From IMG/VR virus record IMGVR_UViG_3300017716_001496, positions 1 to 37,098 of that record: a stretch of DNA of 37,098 nt, one strand, 5' to 3'. The DNA comes from a virus. Lineage: Duplodnaviria > Caudoviricetes. The position numbers were made by a program, and so were the translations under genes. Numbering within the stretch: the stretch's first letter is position 1; every line of letters starts with the position of its first letter. Below are positions 1,390-36,001 of the stretch, piece by piece. The notes under the pieces were generated by a model. The model did not search any database. It was not told the DNA's origin and saw only the letters and a program-made list of their open reading frames with translations.

Positions 1390-2133
1390 ATGAGCCTTCG
1401 CGAAGAACTGCAAAACCGAGCCGACAAGCTTGACGCCGAACTACTGGCGCTGTCTGGCCGCATCAGGGCGATAGAGCGCGAGAGCGACGACGTGCATACG
1501 TGCATCAACGCGCTCGACATTGCGGAGATGGACGCTCAAGACGCCGCGCTGGAGCCCGCTCCTGCTGAGATCGACCCATTCAGCTTGGCGCACGAGGAAC
1601 ACCTCGCGCCTTTTGCTGAGACCAACAACCATAGCTTCTGGGAAGTGCGGTGGGATTTCAGCGCAGGATACTATGACTGCCAGCGTTATGCTGTCGAAGC
1701 TGATGCGCTCGCAGCGTTCGACGTGCTCCACACTGCCACATTGCACAAGTTCGACCCCGACATGGGCTATGTTGAACTAGGGCGGAAGTCCAAGCACTCT
1801 GTTCCCGCTCCCGCTGAGCCGGAAGCCGAGGAAGCAGACGAGCCCGCAGAGCACATCTCCATCCTGACAGGCGACCCTGCGGTTGAGCCTGAGAGCGGGC
1901 TGCACGCAGACCCCGAGCCGACCGAACTCGACGCCCCCGCAAGCATCGTAGACGACCCCGAGCTTCTGGCGGCTGTAGCTCGAGCAGAGGCAACGCTGCA
2001 GGAAGCCGAGCCCGCCTACGTCGGCCTGCAAGACCCAGAGCTTGATGCCGAATACGAGGCCATGCGCGAGCGCGAACAGGCTGACCGCAAGCTGCACTTC
2101 TCGATCTTTGGCATGAAGCGAGAAGACGCATGA
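1390..2133 (+). CDS. Acidic, Pro/Glu-rich hypothetical phage protein with N-terminal coiled coil
   Basis: 247-aa ORF, SD GAGGA upstream, ATGA overlap with the next gene. Confidence 0.75.
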   Translation: MSLREELQNRADKLDAELLALSGRIRAIERESDDVHTCINALDIAEMDAQDAALEPAPAEIDPFSLAHEEHLAPFAETNNHSFWEVRWDFSAGYYDCQRYAVEADALAAFDVLHTATLHKFDPDMGYVELGRKSKHSVPAPAEPEAEEADEPAEHISILTGDPAVEPESGLHADPEPTELDAPASIVDDPELLAAVARAEATLQEAEPAYVGLQDPELDAEYEAMREREQADRKLHFSIFGMKREDA

Positions 2134-2354
2134 CCTTCCGCATTCTCACAGCACTAGCCGCGCTGATCGCAGGCTCGTGCCTCGTCTTCATTGGCGTGGA
2201 CAACCTCGCTGGCAACGAAATCGCAAGGTTCGCGCTGACGTTCCTCTTCGGCGCAGGCGTCATCTCAGGAGGCATCTACCTGATCGGAGCGGGCGTTGTC
2301 CTGCTGACGCATGAGACGTGGATAGCGCGCGCTGTTGAGAGGCTGAAGCAATGA
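2130..2354 (+). CDS. Small 2-TM membrane protein
   Basis: 74 aa, two hydrophobic segments, ATGA overlaps at both ends. Confidence 0.75.
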   Translation: MTFRILTALAALIAGSCLVFIGVDNLAGNEIARFALTFLFGAGVISGGIYLIGAGVVLLTHETWIARAVERLKQ

Positions 2355-2527
2355 GGCGCGCTCTGATATTCAGTTCGCTATCACTTGCATTCGCGGCGCT
2401 GTCGTTTCGGCTGATGAAGCTTGAGACCGTAGACGAAGCAATCGGGGTCGCCTCGGTATTTGCCGTCGCGCTGTTCCTGCTTGCGTGGGCCGCGCACGCA
2501 ATCAAAGGGCGGAAGGAAGAACGATGA
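2351..2527 (+). CDS. Small 2-TM membrane peptide (58 aa, not in the ORF track)
   Basis: Translated by hand: MRRALIFSSLSLAFAALSFRLMKLETVDEAIGVASVFAVALFLLAWAAHAIKGRKEER. ATGA overlaps at both ends. Confidence 0.7.
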   Translation: MRRALIFSSLSLAFAALSFRLMKLETVDEAIGVASVFAVALFLLAWAAHAIKGRKEER

Positions 2528-4972: not shown

Positions 4973-5046
4973 CTCAGTCTCCATCTGAGTGAGGGGTGGG
5001 GGTCCACGGTTGCTGCCGTGCCCACCCCGTTAAATTTTCAAACATC
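4973..5046 (-). promoter_or_regulatory. Structured 5' leader of the minus-strand gene (boxA-like motif plus hairpins)
   Basis: Minus strand: GATGTTTGAAAAT, then stem GGGGTGGG-CACGG/CCGTG..CCCACCCC (4993-5028), then a CTCAG/CTGAG hairpin with the SD in its loop. Confidence 0.4.
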
Positions 5047-5180
5047 TACGAAGCAGCGCTTCGATGCATTCAACCTACGCGCGATAGGTAGCCAAAAAAG
5101 CGGTAATGCGTGAAATGCATGCCGATATTGATCACATTCGCGTGATAATTGAAGTATTCGCCAAGCATAGGCGCAAGCAA

Positions 5181-5405
5181 ATGTGGACAGTCGCCAAGCT
5201 TATTTGCCCGCCGCTAGGTCTAGGCCAAGCAAAGCTGAAGCTTACCAAGAGCTTTCACCGCATAAAGCCGTCCGCCCGCATGTCGATGCTCACGCAGGCC
5301 ATGAAGCAGATGCGCGCTGAATACGACCGCGCAGAGACCGAACACCGTATTGAGCGCCAGCACGAAGACGCCCGCAACGCAGAGACAATCCAGGCTCGCG
5401 CCTAA
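5181..5405 (+). CDS. Small basic hypothetical protein
   Basis: ORF 5106..5405. Start is uncertain. ATG 5181 is preferred because the upstream part is AT-richer and promoter-like. Confidence 0.55.
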   Translation: MWTVAKLICPPLGLGQAKLKLTKSFHRIKPSARMSMLTQAMKQMRAEYDRAETEHRIERQHEDARNAETIQARA

Positions 5406-5421
5406 CAACGGACGGTGAAGC

Positions 5422-6138
5422 GTGGCGCTAAAGTCCATCATCAAGACGCCATTGCAAAGCATGGTTAGATCGTCGGTCGGCGTGCCCCCCACGCTGCTTC
5501 AGATCGCCAAGGCTCGGAACAACGGCATTACCCCGCTGCATTTCTTCGACTTCGCTAACAACCGCGCCCTTTTTAACAGCGCGGACGTTGGGGCCATCTC
5601 CAGCATTCCGAACCTGACCGGCACGCTCAACCTTGTCGCTGGAGTCGGGCATCGTCTTGCTGGCGCGGCCAACATCCTCAAGATCACCTCGCCAGGCATC
5701 AGCTACCCTTGCACAGTTGCAGCAAAGTTCACGCGCACGACGGACACCGGAGGCGGTGAGCAACTGGTATTTGCGTCGGCAGGCGGGACCGCACAGAACG
5801 TATCGAACATCAACGTAGGCGTCGCTGACACTGGCCGCGCAGCCATGACGACGGCAAACGTCTCCCAAGGGTCTGCAATTGTTGCGACGGTCATGGCGAC
5901 CGGGACGCCCTACAAGATGGCGGGCCGGTTTGCAGCGAACGACATGCACGCGGCGGTCAATGGCGTTCTGTCCGCTGCGCCTGTCACAAGCCTGACCCTG
6001 CCGACAACGCCCGACGCCATCAACATCGGCGGCACTGTTCTCGGCGCTCAATTCCTCGTTGGCGACATTGAATACGTTTCCATATTCAGCAGCGCTCTCA
6101 GTGACGCGCAGCTTCAGACTGTGACCACACCCAGCTAA
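5422..6138 (+). CDS. Concanavalin A/LamG-like beta-sandwich virion protein
   Basis: Thr/Ala/Gly-rich. C-terminal YKMAGRF...AAVNGV...INIGG...LVGDIEYVSIFSSALSDAQLQTVT is typical of LamG-like phage structural domains. Confidence 0.7.
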   Translation: MALKSIIKTPLQSMVRSSVGVPPTLLQIAKARNNGITPLHFFDFANNRALFNSADVGAISSIPNLTGTLNLVAGVGHRLAGAANILKITSPGISYPCTVAAKFTRTTDTGGGEQLVFASAGGTAQNVSNINVGVADTGRAAMTTANVSQGSAIVATVMATGTPYKMAGRFAANDMHAAVNGVLSAAPVTSLTLPTTPDAINIGGTVLGAQFLVGDIEYVSIFSSALSDAQLQTVTTPS

Positions 6139-13388: not shown

Positions 13389-13669
13389 CCCCAGAACAGC
13401 GCGAAGAGTGGCTGGAAGAGTTCCAGGCATGGCGCGACAGCCCCATGTCCGAGGCGTTTTTCAACAGCCTTGAAATCCAGCAGGCGGGCATTCGTTCGCA
13501 ATGGACGAAGACGCTGTGGGAATCGGAAGCCGATCCGCCAATGGACCAGCTCCGGCACCTTAGAACTCAGGCAGCAGTGCTTGACGACGTAATCAACAGA
13601 AAGGGAACAGATGTCCTTGCATCACTCTACCCTGACCTTCGAGCCGATGCCGAAGGTGGAGGAGACTAA
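13385..13669 (+). CDS. Small head-module protein (94 aa)
   Basis: ATGA-coupled. The W...P.SE.FF pattern and the position before GroES are typical of this podoviral layout. Confidence 0.7.
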   Translation: MTPEQREEWLEEFQAWRDSPMSEAFFNSLEIQQAGIRSQWTKTLWESEADPPMDQLRHLRTQAAVLDDVINRKGTDVLASLYPDLRADAEGGGD

Positions 13670-14006
13670 TCCGGGGATGAAACCCCTTGAGTTCAACTGC
13701 CTCGTTCTTCCGCGTGTGATCCAGCGCCAGCGTGCGTCTGGCATCTTCGTGCCTGAGACGGCTGCGGCGCGTGAGGATGAGGGCGGCGACGAGGGGCTTT
13801 TGGTCTCTGTCTCGCCGCTGGCGTTCAACGAGCAGGACTTTCCCGATCCGGCTGCAATCCCTGAGATCGGGCAACACGTCATGTTCGCCCGCTATGCCGG
13901 GAAGTCATTCGTGGGCGCCGATGGGCGTGTCTATCGGGTGATGAAGGACAAGGAGATCCTCGGGGTTCGCACGGCTGCGGCTGCGCCGGCCAAGGTGGCG
14001 GCATGA
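13611..14006 (+). CDS. groES: GroES-like co-chaperonin
   Basis: MKPLEFNCLVLP...ASGIFVP...GLLVSVSP...IGQHVMFARYAG...YRVMKDKEILGV. Start is uncertain (13611, 13647 or 13677). Confidence 0.88.
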   Translation: MSLHHSTLTFEPMPKVEETNPGMKPLEFNCLVLPRVIQRQRASGIFVPETAAAREDEGGDEGLLVSVSPLAFNEQDFPDPAAIPEIGQHVMFARYAGKSFVGADGRVYRVMKDKEILGVRTAAAAPAKVAA

Positions 14007-30206: not shown

Positions 30207-30848
30207 ATGTCACTCCCGAATGACGCCGAGCGCGTCAAATTCCTCGCGCATGTTGAATTGCAGCGCACAGACTGGAAGCTGTTCCGCGCCATGGAGCGGC
30301 GTTTTGCCGGCGCTGAATGGTGCGACTGGCGCGATGCCATGCGCGAGATTGCGAGCCATCCCGAGGGCCATGCAGAGCCGCTACCGCCAGAGCCTCCGTT
30401 TGGCGCGCCGGTCAGTGAACTGGACGCCCTGCGCGAAGAGAACGCCCGGCTTCGCGCCGAGGCTGATCGTCACAACTTCCCGGCGAACCTTTCGGACAAG
30501 CTCTCCGACTGGGACACGGGGGCGGACGAGAACAACCTCACCACGGCGGACCTGAGCGAAGACCTAGCGCAACTGGTGACAGGCGAAGAGACGCTTGCGC
30601 AGGCCGTCGAGCGCATGACGCCGGGCCTCGATGAACTGCTGGATATGGCGCAGGCGCTTTCCAATCCCTCGCTGGAGAAGGCTATCGCTACGATTGAGCC
30701 AGAGCGCGCGAACGACTGGATGGAGCGGCTGTTTTCTGAGCGGGGGCGGCTGCGGCTTGCACGCGGAACGGTGGATGAAAATCTATCGCGCGAGAACCTG
30801 ATCAACAAGACCGTTGGCGTTTTTGGGCGTGTGGGCGCCAAGCGATGA
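30207..30848 (+). CDS. Tail fibre assembly chaperone-like protein with C-terminal extension
   Basis: RTDW...EWCDWRDAMREI...LPPEP resembles the TDW...W..YR..LRD...P..P tail-assembly chaperone motif. Directly follows the tailspike. Confidence 0.55.
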   Translation: MSLPNDAERVKFLAHVELQRTDWKLFRAMERRFAGAEWCDWRDAMREIASHPEGHAEPLPPEPPFGAPVSELDALREENARLRAEADRHNFPANLSDKLSDWDTGADENNLTTADLSEDLAQLVTGEETLAQAVERMTPGLDELLDMAQALSNPSLEKAIATIEPERANDWMERLFSERGRLRLARGTVDENLSRENLINKTVGVFGRVGAKR

Positions 30849-30850
30849 CT

Positions 30851-31325
30851 AACTTAGGGGCTGGGCAAAATGACCGAGTTTATACTGAAGGACCAGCTTG
30901 AGCTTTCAAAGCGCTTAGCTGAACGGGCCGAGTGGGAGCGGATCGCCAATCTTCAAGAGGCGGTTGCCACTCTCAGGACACGGTTTGACGATGCAATAGA
31001 GCGCATAAGAGAGCGCCTTGCTGATGCCGTTTCTGATGACGACATCAAGGACATAAAGCGAGAATGGGAGACCGCCTTGCGTGATGCCATTTCGGGTATC
31101 CGAGAACACTTCACCACGGCCAATGAGCAGCAGTCAAACGCTCTGCTCGGGCAAGTCGAGTTGATGCTTTCGCGCGATCGTGCAGCCGCAGAGCATGAGG
31201 CGAAGAAGACCCGCCAGCAATTCCAGATGGCGATATTCGCAGCGGTGCTCTCGATCATGGGGGCGCTGTTTGTGTTCTACGAGACTTCAAGGCTGCAATA
31301 GAAGCAACTGAGGGCTGGGCAAATG
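30851..31325 (+). repeat. Near-identical ~20-nt translation-initiation regions at 30851-30872 and 31306-31325
   Basis: AACTTAGGGGCTGGGCAAAATG vs AACTGAGGGCTGGGCAAATG. Confidence 0.7.
30870..31301 (+). CDS. Coiled-coil protein with C-terminal TM anchor
   Basis: Helical charged body followed by FQMAIFAAVLSIMGALFVFY. Confidence 0.8.
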   Translation: MTEFILKDQLELSKRLAERAEWERIANLQEAVATLRTRFDDAIERIRERLADAVSDDDIKDIKREWETALRDAISGIREHFTTANEQQSNALLGQVELMLSRDRAAAEHEAKKTRQQFQMAIFAAVLSIMGALFVFYETSRLQ

Positions 31326-32546
31326 TTCATCAAGTTCATGAAGGCCGCAGGTAGTGGCCTAGACACATTCCTCGCTATGAAGAACGAGGACGGCCTCACC
31401 AAGAAGCTGACTGTCTTCGGCATCCTCATCCTGACCATTGGACTTGCAACGCTGTCCATCACGGGCGCGTTTGCCAAGTCAAGCGGTGATGGCGGCGCAT
31501 GGGTCGGGCGTCTGGCCTATGCGCTTGTGGTGCTTGGCCTGGAATTGCTCGCAGCCGTTTTGTTCGTTCGCGCCATGGCGACAAAGGACAGGCCGCGCCA
31601 GATCATCTGCTTTGCGATCATGCTCCCGCTCATGTGGGCGAATGTGCAGAACGCGAAAGACGGATTGCATTATATCATGCCGTCAACCTTTGGCGCGTCG
31701 AGCGTTGTTCTCAACGCCAAAGCCGACCTCGCACGTGAAGAAGCCGCCAAACTGACGACAACGGCGGACACGGTTGCAGCCTCGACCCCGGAAGAACTGG
31801 AACGCATTCGCAAGCAGATTGCGGACCTGCGTGTTGAGCAGAAGAAGATGGCGGCGCAGAGCCCCGAGGGCGTGAAGGAAGCGCAAGCCCTGCTGCTGGC
31901 CCAAGGCAAGTATTACGGCTCAGTTGATGGTATCCGCGAGAACCTGACCGAAGCTGCCATGCGCGGGCGGGGCGAGGAGATCCAAGGCGAACTGGCCGAA
32001 CTGAAGGAGCGCGAAACTTCGTTGGCAAGCGGTGCGCCTGTTCCAGTTCAGGCTGCTTCGACCGATCGCCGGGTTGACGAGATTGAGCTTCGCGACCAAG
32101 CGGCCAAGGCGGCTGACGCTGAACTGCGCGCCGACGTGATCTTCTGGATTTCCGAGTTCGCCCGGCAGTTCCTGCTTTATGCGGCAGCAACTACCCTGAC
32201 GGCGACTGCTACGGTTGCAGGTTTGCGCCGTATGGAGGAGCTAGCCGAGGCAGAGCACCAGCTTGCCCTTGCTGCCATGCGCGCCGGTATGAGCCATGCG
32301 CCGGTTGCCGCGGCCCCCGTAGCCCCGCCCCCGGAACCGGCCCCAGAGCCCATTACTGAGCCCGTGGAGACGGTTTCCGCCCCAGCCGCACCCATTGAGC
32401 CAGAACTGCCTCCCGTTGATCAGCGGGCACGCAAGGGCGGCAAGAACGCATCGTTCCTGAAGGAAGCCAAGAAAGCCGCCAAGAACCGCGTCCTGATCCT
32501 CGCTGATCGTTCGGACGCCCAAGTCATGAAGGTGGCCGCAGAATGA
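31323..32546 (+). CDS. Multi-TM coiled-coil membrane protein with peptidoglycan-binding-like motif
   Basis: Three N-terminal TMs, a coiled coil containing VKEAQALLLAQGKYYGSVDGIRENLTEAAM, a fourth hydrophobic segment and a Pro-rich basic tail. Confidence 0.8.
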   Translation: MFIKFMKAAGSGLDTFLAMKNEDGLTKKLTVFGILILTIGLATLSITGAFAKSSGDGGAWVGRLAYALVVLGLELLAAVLFVRAMATKDRPRQIICFAIMLPLMWANVQNAKDGLHYIMPSTFGASSVVLNAKADLAREEAAKLTTTADTVAASTPEELERIRKQIADLRVEQKKMAAQSPEGVKEAQALLLAQGKYYGSVDGIRENLTEAAMRGRGEEIQGELAELKERETSLASGAPVPVQAASTDRRVDEIELRDQAAKAADAELRADVIFWISEFARQFLLYAAATTLTATATVAGLRRMEELAEAEHQLALAAMRAGMSHAPVAAAPVAPPPEPAPEPITEPVETVSAPAAPIEPELPPVDQRARKGGKNASFLKEAKKAAKNRVLILADRSDAQVMKVAAE

Positions 32547-34060
32547 ATCATTTTTTGTGCATCGACTGCGGAACTTCAACGTCAGCCGTAGGCATCTATG
32601 GCCCGCTTGGCCCTGAAGTCGTGAAGGTGGACGGGGCCGATACCATGCCCTCCGTCGTGATGCTGGTCCCGACCGAAGACCCCGCAAATCCGTGGGACGT
32701 TGTCGTCGGAGCGAAGGCCATCAAGGCGCGCGACTTCGATCCCAAGAGCCCATATTGCTTCACCTCGATCAAGCGTCAGCTTGGGGCAGTCTACAACCCC
32801 GAGGAAGCGACCCCGGACCAGATGGTCCCTGCGCCCAACGGGATGCTCCACTATCAGGGGCCGGATGGCGTCACCTACGCCCCCGAAGAACTGATCGCAC
32901 ATATCCTAGTGCATCTCCGCAAAACGGCAGAAGCCAAGATCGGGCAGACCGTCACCAGCCTCATTCTCTGCGTTCCGACCGGCTTCAACATCGCCCAACG
33001 CAATGCGCTTCGCAAAGCGGCGGACCTTGCTGGCTTTGATGAAGTCGAACTGCTGGACGAGCCTGTCGCGGCAGCAATCGCACACGGCTTCCAGATCGAA
33101 GACGACAAGGTCTATCGGATCTTCGTCTGTGACGTGGGAGCCGGAACAACCGACTGCGCAGCCTTCGAGATCGGTGCGGGGCTGTTCCGTGTACTCGGGA
33201 CCAATGGCGCTGAACTGGTCGGCGGCGATGATTGGGACCGCAATATCCGCTCGCAGGCCCTGAACATGCACCAGCTTGAGCATGAAGATTCGACGCTGGC
33301 GACCGACGCAACCGTGCTGCGCCTCATGCTGACGCAAGCTGAGCTTACCAAACGCCGGCTGTCGGATGAGGAAGCAACCGAGTTCAGGATGCTTGAAGCT
33401 GGCGTGGACAAGCTGGGCGAGGATATCCACATCGTCCAGCGCTTCAGCCGCGACCTGATGGACGAGATTACCTCAGAGCTTTTGAACGATATCGATGACG
33501 CCATTGACCGCACGATGGCAGAGGCAAAGCAGAAAGACCCCCGATTCACCATCAGAGACATCGACGCTGTGATTTGTGTCGGCGGGCAAACGCGCGTGAA
33601 AGCGATCCAGAAGCGTGTCGCGCAGAAGTTCCAGAAGCAGCCGCGCTCAGACGTTGACCCGGAGCTTGCGGTTGTTCTCGGCGGTGCAGTGCAGGCAGGC
33701 ATCCGAGAGGGCAGGCTGGCGAGCATTACGGTCCAGAACATCACGGCGCACAGCTTCAGCATCGAGACGCACGACAAGCCGCAAGACGTGGCGACCGAGA
33801 TCGTCCGCAAGGGCACGGCCTTTGGAACGCGCGCAACCTGGTGGCTGTCCAACCGCGACCGCGATCAGGGCTCCGTGACGCTCCGGCTGCTTCAAGGCGA
33901 TGACAAAGACCCCGCCAAGAATATCCTCGTCTGGGAACAGCACATTGAGATCGAGCCCGGCGATCCGCGCTCTGCGGAGATCCAGCTAGACGTTGAGATC
34001 GACCCGTCTGGCGAACCTATATTGGAAGTCGCGGGCTATCGTTATGGGCGGGTGGGATGA
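32543..34060 (+). CDS. Hsp70/DnaK-family ATPase, divergent and lacking the helical lid
   Basis: IDCGTSTS, TMPSVV, SIKRQLG, VPTGFNIAQRNALRKAADLAG, DEPVAAAIAHG, DVGAGTTD, VGGDDWD, VGGQTRV, VDPELAVVLGGAVQAG, and SBD-beta-like DQGSVTLRLLQGD. Confidence 0.93.
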   Translation: MNHFLCIDCGTSTSAVGIYGPLGPEVVKVDGADTMPSVVMLVPTEDPANPWDVVVGAKAIKARDFDPKSPYCFTSIKRQLGAVYNPEEATPDQMVPAPNGMLHYQGPDGVTYAPEELIAHILVHLRKTAEAKIGQTVTSLILCVPTGFNIAQRNALRKAADLAGFDEVELLDEPVAAAIAHGFQIEDDKVYRIFVCDVGAGTTDCAAFEIGAGLFRVLGTNGAELVGGDDWDRNIRSQALNMHQLEHEDSTLATDATVLRLMLTQAELTKRRLSDEEATEFRMLEAGVDKLGEDIHIVQRFSRDLMDEITSELLNDIDDAIDRTMAEAKQKDPRFTIRDIDAVICVGGQTRVKAIQKRVAQKFQKQPRSDVDPELAVVLGGAVQAGIREGRLASITVQNITAHSFSIETHDKPQDVATEIVRKGTAFGTRATWWLSNRDRDQGSVTLRLLQGDDKDPAKNILVWEQHIEIEPGDPRSAEIQLDVEIDPSGEPILEVAGYRYGRVG

Positions 34061-35247
34061 ACGAGCAGCTTCACGTCGGAGAGCAGTTCTTTCGGATCAT
34101 CAGGGAGTTCGAGAAGGCCCCCGCTAACTGCCCGCAGACGGCAGACGGCGCGGCGCTGGAAGCCTACCTGTGTCCGTCAAATCAATGGACGCTCGGATTC
34201 GGCTGCTGCTTCTGGCACTATGATGGACGCGCTGTGCAGCAAGGCGACACGCTAGACCCGTCTCAGGTCGGCGTCATGCTGGCCTACAACGCGCGCTATT
34301 GCGAAGAGTATGTCCGCGAGAACGTGGCGGTTGATCTGAATCAGAACCAATTCGACGTTTTGTGTTCGTTCCGTTTCAACACGCGGGAAACAACCCTGCG
34401 CAATTCTTCGCGCCTCCTGCCAGCAGTCAACGCGCAGGAATGGCAAAAGGCAGCGGCGGCTTTCACAGAGTTTGTCTACGGCTCCAGCACGTTCGATGGG
34501 AAGCCATACCAAGAGGCCATGCGCGGGCTGCTACGACGCAGGCTTTGGGAGGGCCTGATCTTCCTCGGTCTCGACCCTGCCGACGCCGTGAAAGACAAAG
34601 ACGTAGCCCTTCCGAGCGATCGCAAGCTGCTCAACAGCGGCGTCTATCGCGACATGATCCGCAGCGAGGGCCTAACCACAATCAACCAGGTGAAGATGAA
34701 GGCGACCCCGCTCGCATCGTCCGAACTCGTCCTCACCCCCTCCATGCAAGCTGCGCCACCGCCTACCGCTACAGGGTCCACGGTGGTTGTCGGGAGCGTG
34801 CCGGTCGTTCCCCCAGTCCAGACCGGCACGACTTCCCCATCCGTTTCGCCAGCGCCGTCTGACAGAGTGGTTCCTCCAGTCGTCGTTGCGAAAAAGCCCG
34901 AGGCGATCAACCCTGCTCCCCCGCAGTCGCCTCGGGCTCCCACTCCACCGCCGAAACTTCCCGATCCGCCCGTTCCGATTGGTCAGCAGACCAGCGCAGT
35001 CGATGCCGCGCGCAAGTCGGAAGAGTGGTCACACTCTGCGAAAAGCATGATCTTCAGCCGGAGATTTTGGGGTTTATTTCTTGTGGTCATTGGCCGCGTC
35101 TGGATGCTCAAGACGGGCTCCAACGCAGTGCTCGGCGCTGTGTCTGACCCGCTCGTCATGGAGATGTTCAGCGGCTTCATGGTCATGATGCTTGGCGAGC
35201 TTGTCCAGCGCTGGGGCGAGCGCAAAGCGACCCGGCCACTGCGATGA
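34057..35247 (+). CDS. Endolysin (GH24 phage lysozyme) with Pro-rich linker and C-terminal holin-like TM domain
   Basis: IIREFE...LEAYLCPSNQWTLGFG, LNQNQFDVLCSFRFN, GLLRRRLWE. C-terminal SRRFWGLFLVVIG...WGERKATRPLR. Confidence 0.88.
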   Translation: MNEQLHVGEQFFRIIREFEKAPANCPQTADGAALEAYLCPSNQWTLGFGCCFWHYDGRAVQQGDTLDPSQVGVMLAYNARYCEEYVRENVAVDLNQNQFDVLCSFRFNTRETTLRNSSRLLPAVNAQEWQKAAAAFTEFVYGSSTFDGKPYQEAMRGLLRRRLWEGLIFLGLDPADAVKDKDVALPSDRKLLNSGVYRDMIRSEGLTTINQVKMKATPLASSELVLTPSMQAAPPPTATGSTVVVGSVPVVPPVQTGTTSPSVSPAPSDRVVPPVVVAKKPEAINPAPPQSPRAPTPPPKLPDPPVPIGQQTSAVDAARKSEEWSHSAKSMIFSRRFWGLFLVVIGRVWMLKTGSNAVLGAVSDPLVMEMFSGFMVMMLGELVQRWGERKATRPLR

Positions 35248-35549
35248 TGGCGTTCTGGCTTGGCCTCCCGCCATGGGCTCGCACGGCGCTGATGTGGACC
35301 GGCGCAATCATTCTCGCAGTCATCACGGGCAAGCTCATCATTGCCAAGCATGACGAGCGCATCCTCAAGGAAGAACGCCTGCGCGCTGAATTGGAAGCCG
35401 AGAAAGTAGAGTCAGAAGTCATCTCTCAAATCACGGAATCGACCAATGAAGTTATTCGCCAAGATACTGCTGTGCGGGAGCATCCCGCTGTTGTCGTCAT
35501 GCCAGACGGAACCTCGCGCCTCCCGGACTATCATTTCCGCGACCAGTGA
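35244..35549 (+). CDS. Rz: Inner-membrane spanin (Rz-like)
   Basis: N-terminal TM followed by coiled coil. Follows the endolysin and overlaps a lipoprotein gene. Confidence 0.75.
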   Translation: MMAFWLGLPPWARTALMWTGAIILAVITGKLIIAKHDERILKEERLRAELEAEKVESEVISQITESTNEVIRQDTAVREHPAVVVMPDGTSRLPDYHFRDQ

Positions 35550-35721
35550 AGCCGTGTGGAAGGAAGCGCTATGCGCAACCGGCAAGGCAATCATGGTCTC
35601 TCATGGCGATGTGCTGACGCTGGAGACGGCTGAGCAGATTGGCGACCACAACAATTCGATTTTCTGCGCGTGCCCTGAGAAGAGGCCGGAAGGCTTCAGC
35701 ACGGCAATTTGCAAAGTTTGA
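35446..35721 (+). CDS. Rz1: Outer-membrane spanin lipoprotein (Rz1-like)
   Basis: Signal MKLFAKILLCGSIPLLSS|C with lipobox LSSC. Overlaps the i-spanin in another frame. Further Cys residues downstream. Confidence 0.78.
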   Translation: MKLFAKILLCGSIPLLSSCQTEPRASRTIISATSEAVWKEALCATGKAIMVSHGDVLTLETAEQIGDHNNSIFCACPEKRPEGFSTAICKV

Positions 35722-35764: not shown

Positions 35765-36001
35765 GTGAACATTCTTGGGCTTGAAATCACCGCTGCGGGC
35801 GGCAAGGTGAACTGGATGAACATCCGCAGATTTTTCTATGTGGCAATCGCCACGTGGCTGATCGGCGTTCGTCTCATTGGACTCAATCCGTTCGATGACA
35901 AGGAACTGACGCTGGCGACGCTCTTGGATGCGCTCGGCCTGTATGCCGTCTGGCTGATCCTCTGGCATGCAATTTGGTCGGTTCGGCCTAAGTTCGGTTG
36001 A
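35765..36001 (+). CDS. Small 2-TM membrane protein
   Basis: GTG start, SD AAAGGAG, two hydrophobic segments. Confidence 0.7.
   Translation: MNILGLEITAAGGKVNWMNIRRFFYVAIATWLIGVRLIGLNPFDDKELTLATLLDALGLYAVWLILWHAIWSVRPKFG

Follow-up and report, generated by a model that had tools for sequence, protein, structure and literature searches.

A lidless, phage-specific Hsp70 encoded among lysis genes of uncultured phages may act on the tail of a four-helix membrane protein

We analyzed a viral DNA stretch of 37,098 nucleotides (IMG/VR record IMGVR_UViG_3300017716_001496, hereafter the window), in which six plus-strand genes at 30870-35721 combine an Hsp70 with the genes of a lysis cassette. Our ORF calls match an initial annotation of this DNA in all six coordinates and lengths, in the gene order, and in the 4-nt ATGA overlaps, which join the 407-aa gene to the Hsp70 gene, the Hsp70 gene to the lysozyme gene, and the latter to the i-spanin gene. 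The first gene (30870..31301) encodes a 143-aa coiled-coil protein that is tail-anchored: its single TM helix lies at the C-terminus, and hydropathy peaks at residue 118. This protein is found in 23/23 loci of the Hsp70 clade described below, has an XhlA/hemolysin-like architecture, and its slot is also occupied in phages that have no Hsp70. Its relatives match phrog_937 'hemolysin' weakly (E=0.005 in 2/17 members; E=0.001 for the protein of locus L120). A 407-aa four-TM protein (31323..32546) and a 505-aa Hsp70 (32543..34060) follow. The conserved block is opened by a soluble 213-aa protein (30207..30848, plus strand), whose C-terminal half is conserved and whose N-terminal half is variable. 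A homologue is present in 22/23 clade loci, the single miss being a locus cut by a contig end, and Pfam and PHROG searches gave no informative family match that would assign a function. An HPE in this protein was considered as a J-like motif and ruled out, being unconserved among the clade loci. The G-rich leader GGGCTGGGC has just two copies in the window, before the 143-aa gene (30858..30866, plus strand) and before the 407-aa gene (31312-31320). Comparable leaders precede both genes in most of the 18 loci displayed, and they are likely a translation signal common to the two.

Downstream of the Hsp70, the 396-aa GH24 lysozyme (34057..35247) is identified by PF00959 (E=9e-22), phrog_7, alignments and hydropathy. 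Its active-site positions are E19, C39 and T45; the first two are identical in all 17 aligned rows, whereas the third varies. A Pro-rich linker leads to two hydrophobic segments at the C-terminus, where the sole hydropathy peak is found; an N-terminal SAR or signal sequence is absent. The available text on the endolysins Enc34 ORF39 and M4Lys likewise describes an N-terminal catalytic domain, a linker and two C-terminal helices, with spanins downstream and an unexplained membrane crossing, but their catalytic domain is PHA02564 rather than PF00959, and their four-ORF cassettes as described there contain no Hsp70 or four-TM PG-binding protein (PMC8943055, PMC7143992). The 101-aa i-spanin candidate (35244..35549), assigned by position and hydropathy, has an N-terminal TM helix and a coiled coil and finds no family match in Pfam or PHROG searches. 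It is present in 18/23 clade loci, the five misses being contig ends. The 91-aa o-spanin (35446..35721; phrog_1275, E=8.5e-9), also found in 18/23 loci, is of the overlapped type and carries the lipobox LSSC (C19), so that an inner-membrane coiled coil is paired with an overlapping lipoprotein, as in two-component spanins. The initial annotation had pointed out that no stand-alone holin precedes the endolysin. This is true upstream, but a 78-aa two-TM holin candidate (35765..36001, plus strand) lies 3' of the spanins, a slot that holds a small two-TM ORF in 24 of the 28 loci of sufficient length. The 78-aa protein has no PHROG match, and holin-family profiles match none of the 143-, 407- and 78-aa proteins; holins often escape profiles. 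A membrane lesion could be made by this separate downstream protein.

We searched for Hsp70 genes beside lysozyme and TM coiled-coil genes and found an ~500-aa Hsp70 immediately 3' of a four-TM gene in the window and in 31 further loci, all from uncultured phages, which contradicts a one-off insertion. A single-sequence Hsp70 query retrieved nothing from viral contigs, and the clade loci were recovered with an alignment query. Both membrane genes are present upstream of Hsp70 in 23/23 clade loci, and a C-terminally anchored lysozyme and then spanins follow wherever the contig extends far enough, with an opposite-strand ORF between Hsp70 and lysozyme in 3/21. Any module neighbor is found at 0/108 other viral Hsp70/DnaK loci. 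In all 38 informative loci, including L111 and L211 from phages with a different genome layout, the four-TM gene abuts Hsp70 (32 loci) or lysozyme (the remaining 6). We infer from this gene order that the Hsp70/four-TM unit has a role in lysis. It is rather unlikely that the 143/407/Hsp70 unit shares its transcript with the lysis genes while doing a different envelope job, such as superinfection exclusion, wall remodeling of a stalked or budding host, or tethering of DNA or particles by a basic tail helix. With its separate holin candidate the cassette is complete even if the unit is left out, the 143-aa and 407-aa genes share a leader of their own, a basic stretch is retained in every tail class of the four-TM protein, and an integrase is carried by 4/5 relatives, making lysogen functions possible. 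Against this stand the invariable contact of the four-TM gene with Hsp70 or lysozyme, its coupling to the lysozyme by overlaps and, as weak evidence, a promoter and terminator scan that stayed at chance level and found no sigma-70-like promoter 5' of the 143/407 genes.

We compared the module Hsp70 (PF00012, E=1.8e-75) with DnaK by alignment, model and tree. All 24 sampled module proteins form one clade (SH-aLRT 100) apart from DnaK in a quick tree, and this clade does not group with the HscA rows; HscC sequences were not deliberately put in. The phage-specific clade envisaged in the initial annotation is thus borne out. At ~30% identity, the module Hsp70 shares with DnaK the NBD and SBD-β fold and the peptide groove; strands of the β-sandwich lie at residues 405-501 of the model, and the DnaK alignment reaches residue 486. 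The equivalents of DnaK K70, E171, D194, T199, D201, E267 and K270 are retained in 24/24 proteins and that of D8 in 23/24, the missing row being truncated at its start; P143 and K414 equivalents are likewise retained. In contrast, R167, D148, L392 and L390 have equivalents in 0/24, N170 is not retained, and the A429 position is mostly Arg; affected by these changes are the J-domain contact, the substrate relay and the leucines of the interdomain linker (DVLLLD in DnaK). The D326 and M404 columns are ambiguous in the alignment and were left uncounted. The α-helical lid is missing in 24/24, with 3-19 residues past the DnaK-486 column versus 119-156 in 15 controls. The residues kept support a catalytically intact ATPase, with putative coupling to a client. 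A functionless fragment of host dnaK, inserted by chance, is very improbable: relatives manage without Hsp70, but the clade is deep (identity down to about 31%), its catalytic residues are invariant, and its C-terminal end is uniform.

A J-domain partner had been reported missing from the window, and our searches concur: plus-strand ORFs contain no J-domain-like HPD, and PF00226 is found in 0/5 relatives of at least 92% completeness, whereas HscA and HscC have a cognate J-protein nearby. PHROG matches in the window include none pointing to GrpE. The available text of PMC8215388 describes a contact of DnaK R167 with J-domain D35, and loss of D481/R167 contacts raises the basal ATPase activity of DnaK (PMC4595643). 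With the R167/D481 clamp gone, which in DnaK slows hydrolysis, the module Hsp70 would cycle independently of host DnaJ. According to the same available part of PMC8215388, the cellular HscC, with DjlB/DjlC, is likewise a specialized Hsp70 beside membrane-anchored partners; like the module protein, it has an L1,2 loop insertion and probably a narrow client range, but it is targeted by J-domain proteins and retains a shortened lid. In the phage module there is instead no J-domain, and the partner of Hsp70 presents a substrate-like tail.

The 407-aa protein, assigned by its helical model (pLDDT 61), hydropathy and positive-inside topology, would comprise three TM helices, a periplasmic coiled-coil hairpin with a PG-binding-like tip, a fourth TM helix, a Pro-rich linker and a cytoplasmic tail. 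Four polar residues within or bordering the membrane helices are conserved (E74 in 43/43; N110, E278 and R281 each in 42/43). The PG-binding motif proposed in the initial annotation is weak in the single protein: residues 182-214 (31866..31964, plus strand) match PF01471 at E=0.029 (15 bits against a cut-off of 23), and the final third of the domain is not covered. A match is found in 1/18 individual family members, and two relatives (P0142, P0172) pass the Pfam cut-off, but the family profile strengthens the assignment, as its positions about 160-210 retrieve multi-PG_binding_1 proteins. This profile has 98 matches among 50%-identity representatives; the window protein has none in 50,697 phage records, and top feature matches in atlas searches were unnamed clusters alone. 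A scan of a genome collection with the 407-aa alignment gave one chance match and no prophage, and 301 sampled genomes of that match's phylum gave weak partial matches only (E 4e-6 or weaker), nearly all over the PG-binding segment; with only such matches in cellular genomes, the host genome was not found. Compared with the PDB, the model finds no similar fold at E≤0.001, leaving a pore role without fold support. A weak likeness to helical pores of the ClyA type (E≥0.009, TM≤0.23) is generic and was set aside, and HSCB_C, DUF4407 and coiled-coil Pfam matches were all under cut-off.

The cytoplasmic end of the 407-aa protein carries a motif at residues 370-397 (32430..32513, plus strand), made up of RKGG, a basic helix and the hydrophobic core RVLILAD, over which codons vary synonymously. 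This motif is found in 32/32 Hsp70-linked four-TM proteins and in 0/6 from Hsp70-less loci. In a leave-one-tail-type-out HMM analysis, all 32 linked tails scored above 0 bits (1.5-41.8, with L211 lowest), and the six unlinked tails fell below 0 in every round; scanning the entire region past residue 270 gave the same separation. The L207-L212 queries were picked by tail class before their neighbors were viewed: none of the five that lack the motif proved to have an Hsp70, whereas L211, which carries the motif, does. The six Hsp70-less loci encode a four-TM protein, a C-anchored lysozyme and, where visible, spanins, and carry an acidic or small helical domain in place of the motif. They represent about five lineages, and Hsp70 is absent throughout records G001 and G005-G008, four of the five being 45-65% complete (CheckV). 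A viral scan with the acidic-tail class gave nothing, and a metagenome scan gave one 2-kb contig. Since these phages swap the tail for another domain, Hsp70 appears to be a regulator that such a cassette can do without, not the core of lysis. That it is a general late-infection chaperone and the tail motif incidental is improbable. Full DnaK genes occur in large phages, and a Cpn10 (GroES-like) gene in the head module of the window (13611-14006) may be such a chaperone, but the module Hsp70 has lost lid, J-contact and linker in 24/24, its position is fixed, and motif and Hsp70 are present or absent together.

Linked tails fall into at least six sequence types, and their sequence follows the Hsp70 rather than the membrane body. 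The window and L006 are 11% identical in the body, but 74% in the tail and 65% in the NBD, whereas L002 and L020 have 100% identical bodies and 97% identical lysozyme C-termini but differ in tail (32%), NBD (43%) and lysozyme domain (34%). On the far side of Hsp70, the lysozyme domain tracks it as well (Mantel r 0.78 versus 0.74, over rows that are not independent), and as the tail adjoins the Hsp70 gene, their co-inheritance can be plain linkage.

We modeled the complex of tail and Hsp70, which the initial annotation had suggested for the cytoplasmic tails. The prediction scored 0.62 and places the motif in the Hsp70 peptide groove, with tail residues 389-397 contacting Hsp70 residues 407-411 and 431-448. 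In the calibration, the score mark was reached by 116/157 solved pairs and 2/215 mismatched pairs, and the best of three controls, none a hydrophobic peptide, scored 0.00. Runs share at least 83% of contacts, with partner pLDDT at least 52; the score may stem from likeness to solved DnaK-peptide structures. The tail as a mimic of the interdomain linker at the NBD is unsupported, as the model places it in the SBD groove. The absence of the motif without Hsp70 and the predicted groove contact together make the membrane protein, rather than the endolysin, the likely client. It is unlikely that the tail merely tethers Hsp70, with the lysozyme domain as a client that would be held in an unfolded or inactive state and threaded through the four-TM protein. 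Tim44/mtHsp70 and Sec63/BiP are precedents for Hsp70 motors, but a cytoplasmic Hsp70 pulls inward, and this arrangement would run outward. Tail, Hsp70 and lysozyme domain have been exchanged as a block between the membrane anchors of L002 and L020, but the lysozyme domain is also swapped beneath a 97%-identical NBD (L007 versus L011, 53%), the same lysozyme architecture exists without Hsp70, and the predicted tail site occupies the only peptide groove. How C-terminally anchored endolysins cross the inner membrane, as posed in the available text of PMC8943055, is an open question that would favor such a client and that the cassette touches in any case.

We thus return to the membrane protein as client. 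The chance is close to even that the lidless Hsp70 is an ATP-dependent clamp on the four-TM tail that times or tunes envelope opening in lysis. The four-TM protein would be anchored to PG by its periplasmic hairpin and, with or without its 143-aa partner, would oligomerize into a lesion or passage. Through this opening the lysozyme domain, cytoplasmic and borne on a long linker, would gain access to the wall. The hold of Hsp70 on the tail would prevent early action of the membrane protein, or draw it into an active state, and grip and release would keep step with cellular ATP. We count the ATGA overlaps in favor, as they translationally couple Hsp70 to lysozyme and spanins. More tentatively, at somewhat below an even chance, the J-independent Hsp70 may be a timer or motor that senses ATP and clears the way to the wall for the C-terminally tethered endolysin, with tails and chaperones forming orthogonal cognate pairs of at least six types. 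Of the chaperone-gated lysis proposed in the initial annotation, the phage-specific clade fixed in the lysis cluster, the intact catalytic residues, the lack of a nearby J-protein and a predicted tail contact find support, while six loci dispense with Hsp70, the endolysin is not the favored client, and a holin candidate lies downstream.

Lysis timing is set by holins and membrane potential, and in holin/antiholin pairs (lambda S, T4 T/RI) a regulator restrains a membrane protein of the cassette, as proposed here. The four-TM protein has no match among holin families, and we know of no antiholin that is an ATPase chaperone. Control of a lysis membrane protein by an ATPase chaperone, if confirmed, would follow a different logic, and ATP-driven control of envelope opening by a phage Hsp70 would be of an undescribed kind; our literature searches found no description of this Hsp70-lysis gene module. 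Lacking both lid and J-domain site and having a single predicted client, the module Hsp70 is a natural minimal machine, and its specificity and function can be addressed directly with the six types of tail and the variants that naturally lack Hsp70. Closterovirus Hsp70h is also a specialized viral Hsp70 in a conserved block with a membrane protein, used for crossing a cell boundary, but its part is in assembling virions and in movement, not in lysis. Among our structure matches, these longer proteins of plant RNA viruses are 12-26% identical to the module Hsp70.

We compared the lysis cassette of the window with related viral loci. The open reading frames, lengths and ATGA overlaps of the initial annotation were all borne out on the window sequence, and its Hsp70, lysozyme and o-spanin correspond to clear family matches; the peptidoglycan (PG)-binding motif it assigned to the 407-aa membrane protein is weak on this protein alone and supported by the family profile. 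An alignment scan with the Hsp70 retrieved 59 viral loci, 23 of which belong to a clade of lidless, phage-specific Hsp70s. The adjacency is conserved in these other phages, with homologues of the 143-aa and 407-aa proteins upstream of Hsp70 in all 23. The lysozyme is present in 21 (the remaining two contigs stop inside Hsp70) and spanins in 18 (the other five contigs end too early); in three, an opposite-strand ORF parts Hsp70 and lysozyme. A reverse scan with the 407-aa family gave 29 loci, including seven new records, in which Hsp70 comes next in six and one is cut. Two loci, L111 and L211, differ in genome layout yet contain the same membrane protein/Hsp70 unit, and the module neighbours are found in 0 of 108 other viral Hsp70 loci. 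That Hsp70 is simply a passenger is scarcely credible. Other viral Hsp70s of ~510 aa (L043, L044, L047, L056) lie outside the clade, without lysis neighbours.

Opposite-strand ORFs of 188-267 aa, possibly mobile endonucleases, interrupt the gene order before or after the lysozyme gene (L013 3639-4442, L020 2945-3511, L025 11518-12201, L120 12717-13298, all minus strand). G-rich leaders of the GGGC(T/A)GGGC type directly precede both membrane genes in the window (30858-30866, 31312-31320) and likewise in L002-L070, L120 and L207-L212; they differ from the leaders of other window genes, and shared translational control of the two membrane genes is possible. In L207, the slot before the coiled-coil/TM gene holds a 153-aa gene (4973-5434, plus strand), PAS-like by eye and with no Pfam match.

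By sequence, the window Hsp70 is a member of a dedicated phage family. Eighteen of 90 Hsp70 matches cluster at identities of 44-97%, most of them ~500 aa long, and are separated by a gap from the next ones at ~30%. The 24 sampled members, seven of them proteins whose gene neighbourhood was not visible, share a single branch (SH-aLRT 100) of a quick tree with 70 rows. Cultured-phage records returned only ordinary DnaK-like matches, the best-coverage ones at about 31% identity or less, and no homologue of the 407-aa protein. Aligned to Escherichia coli DnaK, whose numbering is used here, and compared with 15 DnaK controls, all 24 members retain Lys-70, Pro-143, Glu-171, Asp-194, Thr-199, Asp-201, Glu-267, Lys-270 and Gly-341-Gly-342; none retains Arg-167, Asp-148, Asn-170, Leu-390 or Leu-392. 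The Ala-429 position is Arg in 17 of 24, and all end 3-19 residues past the DnaK-486 column. In DnaK, Arg-167 is reported to bind Asp-35 of the J-domain HPD and to form part of the Asp-481 clamp (PMC8215388), and basal ATPase activity is reported to rise on replacing Asp-481, Arg-151, Lys-155 or Arg-167 (PMC4595643). The Asp-481 column, mostly Ser or Arg in members, is weaker evidence because the controls have Asn there. The annotated lack of a nearby J-domain gene holds, with none in five near-complete relative genomes. We infer that the clade Hsp70s may be J-independent, fast-cycling and narrow in client range; a general chaperone role seems improbable.

In the 407-aa protein, three helices at the N-terminus lead into a long hairpin, which is followed by a fourth helix and then a Pro-rich tail. 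From the position of basic loops, the hairpin with its PG-binding-like tip is predicted to be periplasmic and the tail cytoplasmic, beside Hsp70. Of 43 diverse members, 42-43 have Glu-74, Asn-110, Glu-278 and Arg-281, and this near-invariance suggests an oligomer or gated structure; the model gave no fold match. At the end of the tail are a GG-basic helix and a hydrophobic core (RVLILAD in the window); the core resembles the model DnaK peptide NRLLLTG and shows synonymous variation among relatives. A short four-TM version of 260-290 aa without the long tail occurs in related proteins P0188, P0191, P0201 and P0202, and in L211 as a second, opposite-strand copy (1648-2439, minus strand).

In a complex prediction, the pairing of Hsp70 with residues 362-407 of the tail obtained a score of 0.62 (best control 0.00). 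This passes a mark that 116 of 157 solved pairs and 2 of 215 mismatched ones attained, but the pass may reflect likeness rather than binding because DnaK-peptide structures have already been solved. Contact agreement between runs was at least 83%, with partner pLDDT at least 52. Residues 389-397 are predicted to lie in a groove of Hsp70 residues 407-411 and 431-448, Leu-393 packing against Val-445, which corresponds to the Val-436 pocket of DnaK. We consider it probable that the tail binds Hsp70 and, because the predicted tail fills the sole groove, read the membrane protein as its putative client.

Loci lacking Hsp70 also lack the tail motif (RKGG, basic helix, hydrophobic core; residues 370-397). 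The closely related L120, whose Hc3 shares 74% identity and whose record has direct terminal repeats and a CheckV completeness of 65%, has coiled-coil/TM, four-TM, lysozyme, spanin and 78-aa genes and a near-identical C-terminal lysozyme anchor; Hsp70 is absent from the whole record, and its four-TM protein has an acidic tail end. Distant relatives were sorted by tail class before their loci were fetched: in L207-L210 and L212 the motif is absent and lysozyme directly follows the four-TM gene, and L211 has both motif and Hsp70. Among 39 loci including the window, 32 have motif and Hsp70, six neither and one is cut; near-copies are included in this census, which covers six types of tail and, without Hsp70, about five lineages. 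Linked and unlinked tails are parted completely by leave-one-type-out HMM scores, L211 narrowly, and a scan over the whole tail region gives the same result. In Hsp70-less L207 (6001-7377), L208 (2635-4044) and L209 (6001-7362), the motif gives way to an acidic end and a cytoplasmic domain that is small, helical and HTH-like in appearance.

Across 25 loci, interrelated so that p-values carry little meaning, distance in the Hsp70 nucleotide-binding part correlates with that of the tail (r 0.74) and lysozyme domain (0.78), and more weakly with the membrane body (0.47) and lysozyme anchor (0.23). Tail, Hsp70 and lysozyme domain are exchanged as a single block between the two Pro-rich linkers, a pattern that can be put down to linkage alone. 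The lysozyme domain differs beneath near-identical Hsp70s (L007 versus L011); no locus viewed shows such a change of tail type. That the lysozyme is the Hsp70 client appears unlikely.

Like Enc34 ORF39 and M4Lys, the lysozyme lacks an anchor at its N-terminus and has a pair of hydrophobic segments at its C-terminus. For those two endolysins, the translocation mechanism is reported as not known, and M4Lys is described as lysing cells without holin or Sec (PMC8943055, PMC7143992). Downstream of the spanins, 24 of 28 loci have a small two-TM gene, a possible holin, so that the cassette is not necessarily without one. At least three unrelated C-terminal anchor types are swapped among relatives' lysozymes. 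The window lysozyme (34057-35247) has Cys at the second catalytic position, invariant across 17 aligned sequences, and further N-terminal cysteines; phage P1 Lyz has similar cysteines and is controlled by disulphides.

It is fairly likely that the membrane unit takes part in lysis. The initial annotation proposed chaperone-gated lysis; a combined model in which Hsp70 would act as clamp or timer on the four-TM protein is tentative, at just under an even chance, and there is a modest chance that membrane unit and Hsp70 serve another envelope function. Taken separately, lidless DnaK derivatives of bacteria, full-length DnaKs of phages and C-anchored endolysins are already known; combining them with a PG-anchored membrane protein that bears such a tail appears new as far as the open-access search reached. 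Among the matches listed from open-access full text, none describes a phage Hsp70 inside a lysis cassette, and the word 'phage' is absent from the available text of a 2026 review of Hsp70 derivatives (PMC13580251).

The window record (37 kb, linear, CheckV completeness 74%) encodes P22-like podophage terminase, portal, capsid, ejection and Hc3 head-closure genes, and four of five relatives have a tyrosine integrase. Those relatives of one integrase that have an organism name, three of 120 among the matches listed, come from Hyphomonas (62%), Glycocaulis (49%) and Brevundimonas (45%), which makes a Caulobacterales bacterium the probable host; genome-collection scans found no host genome. The sequencing dataset that best matches the window is a freshwater metagenome, which may itself be its source. 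The head-assembly module contains a GroES/Cpn10-like gene (13611-14006, plus strand; PF00166 E=1e-8, phrog_3188). This gene is a second phage-borne chaperone part; the window has no GroEL match.
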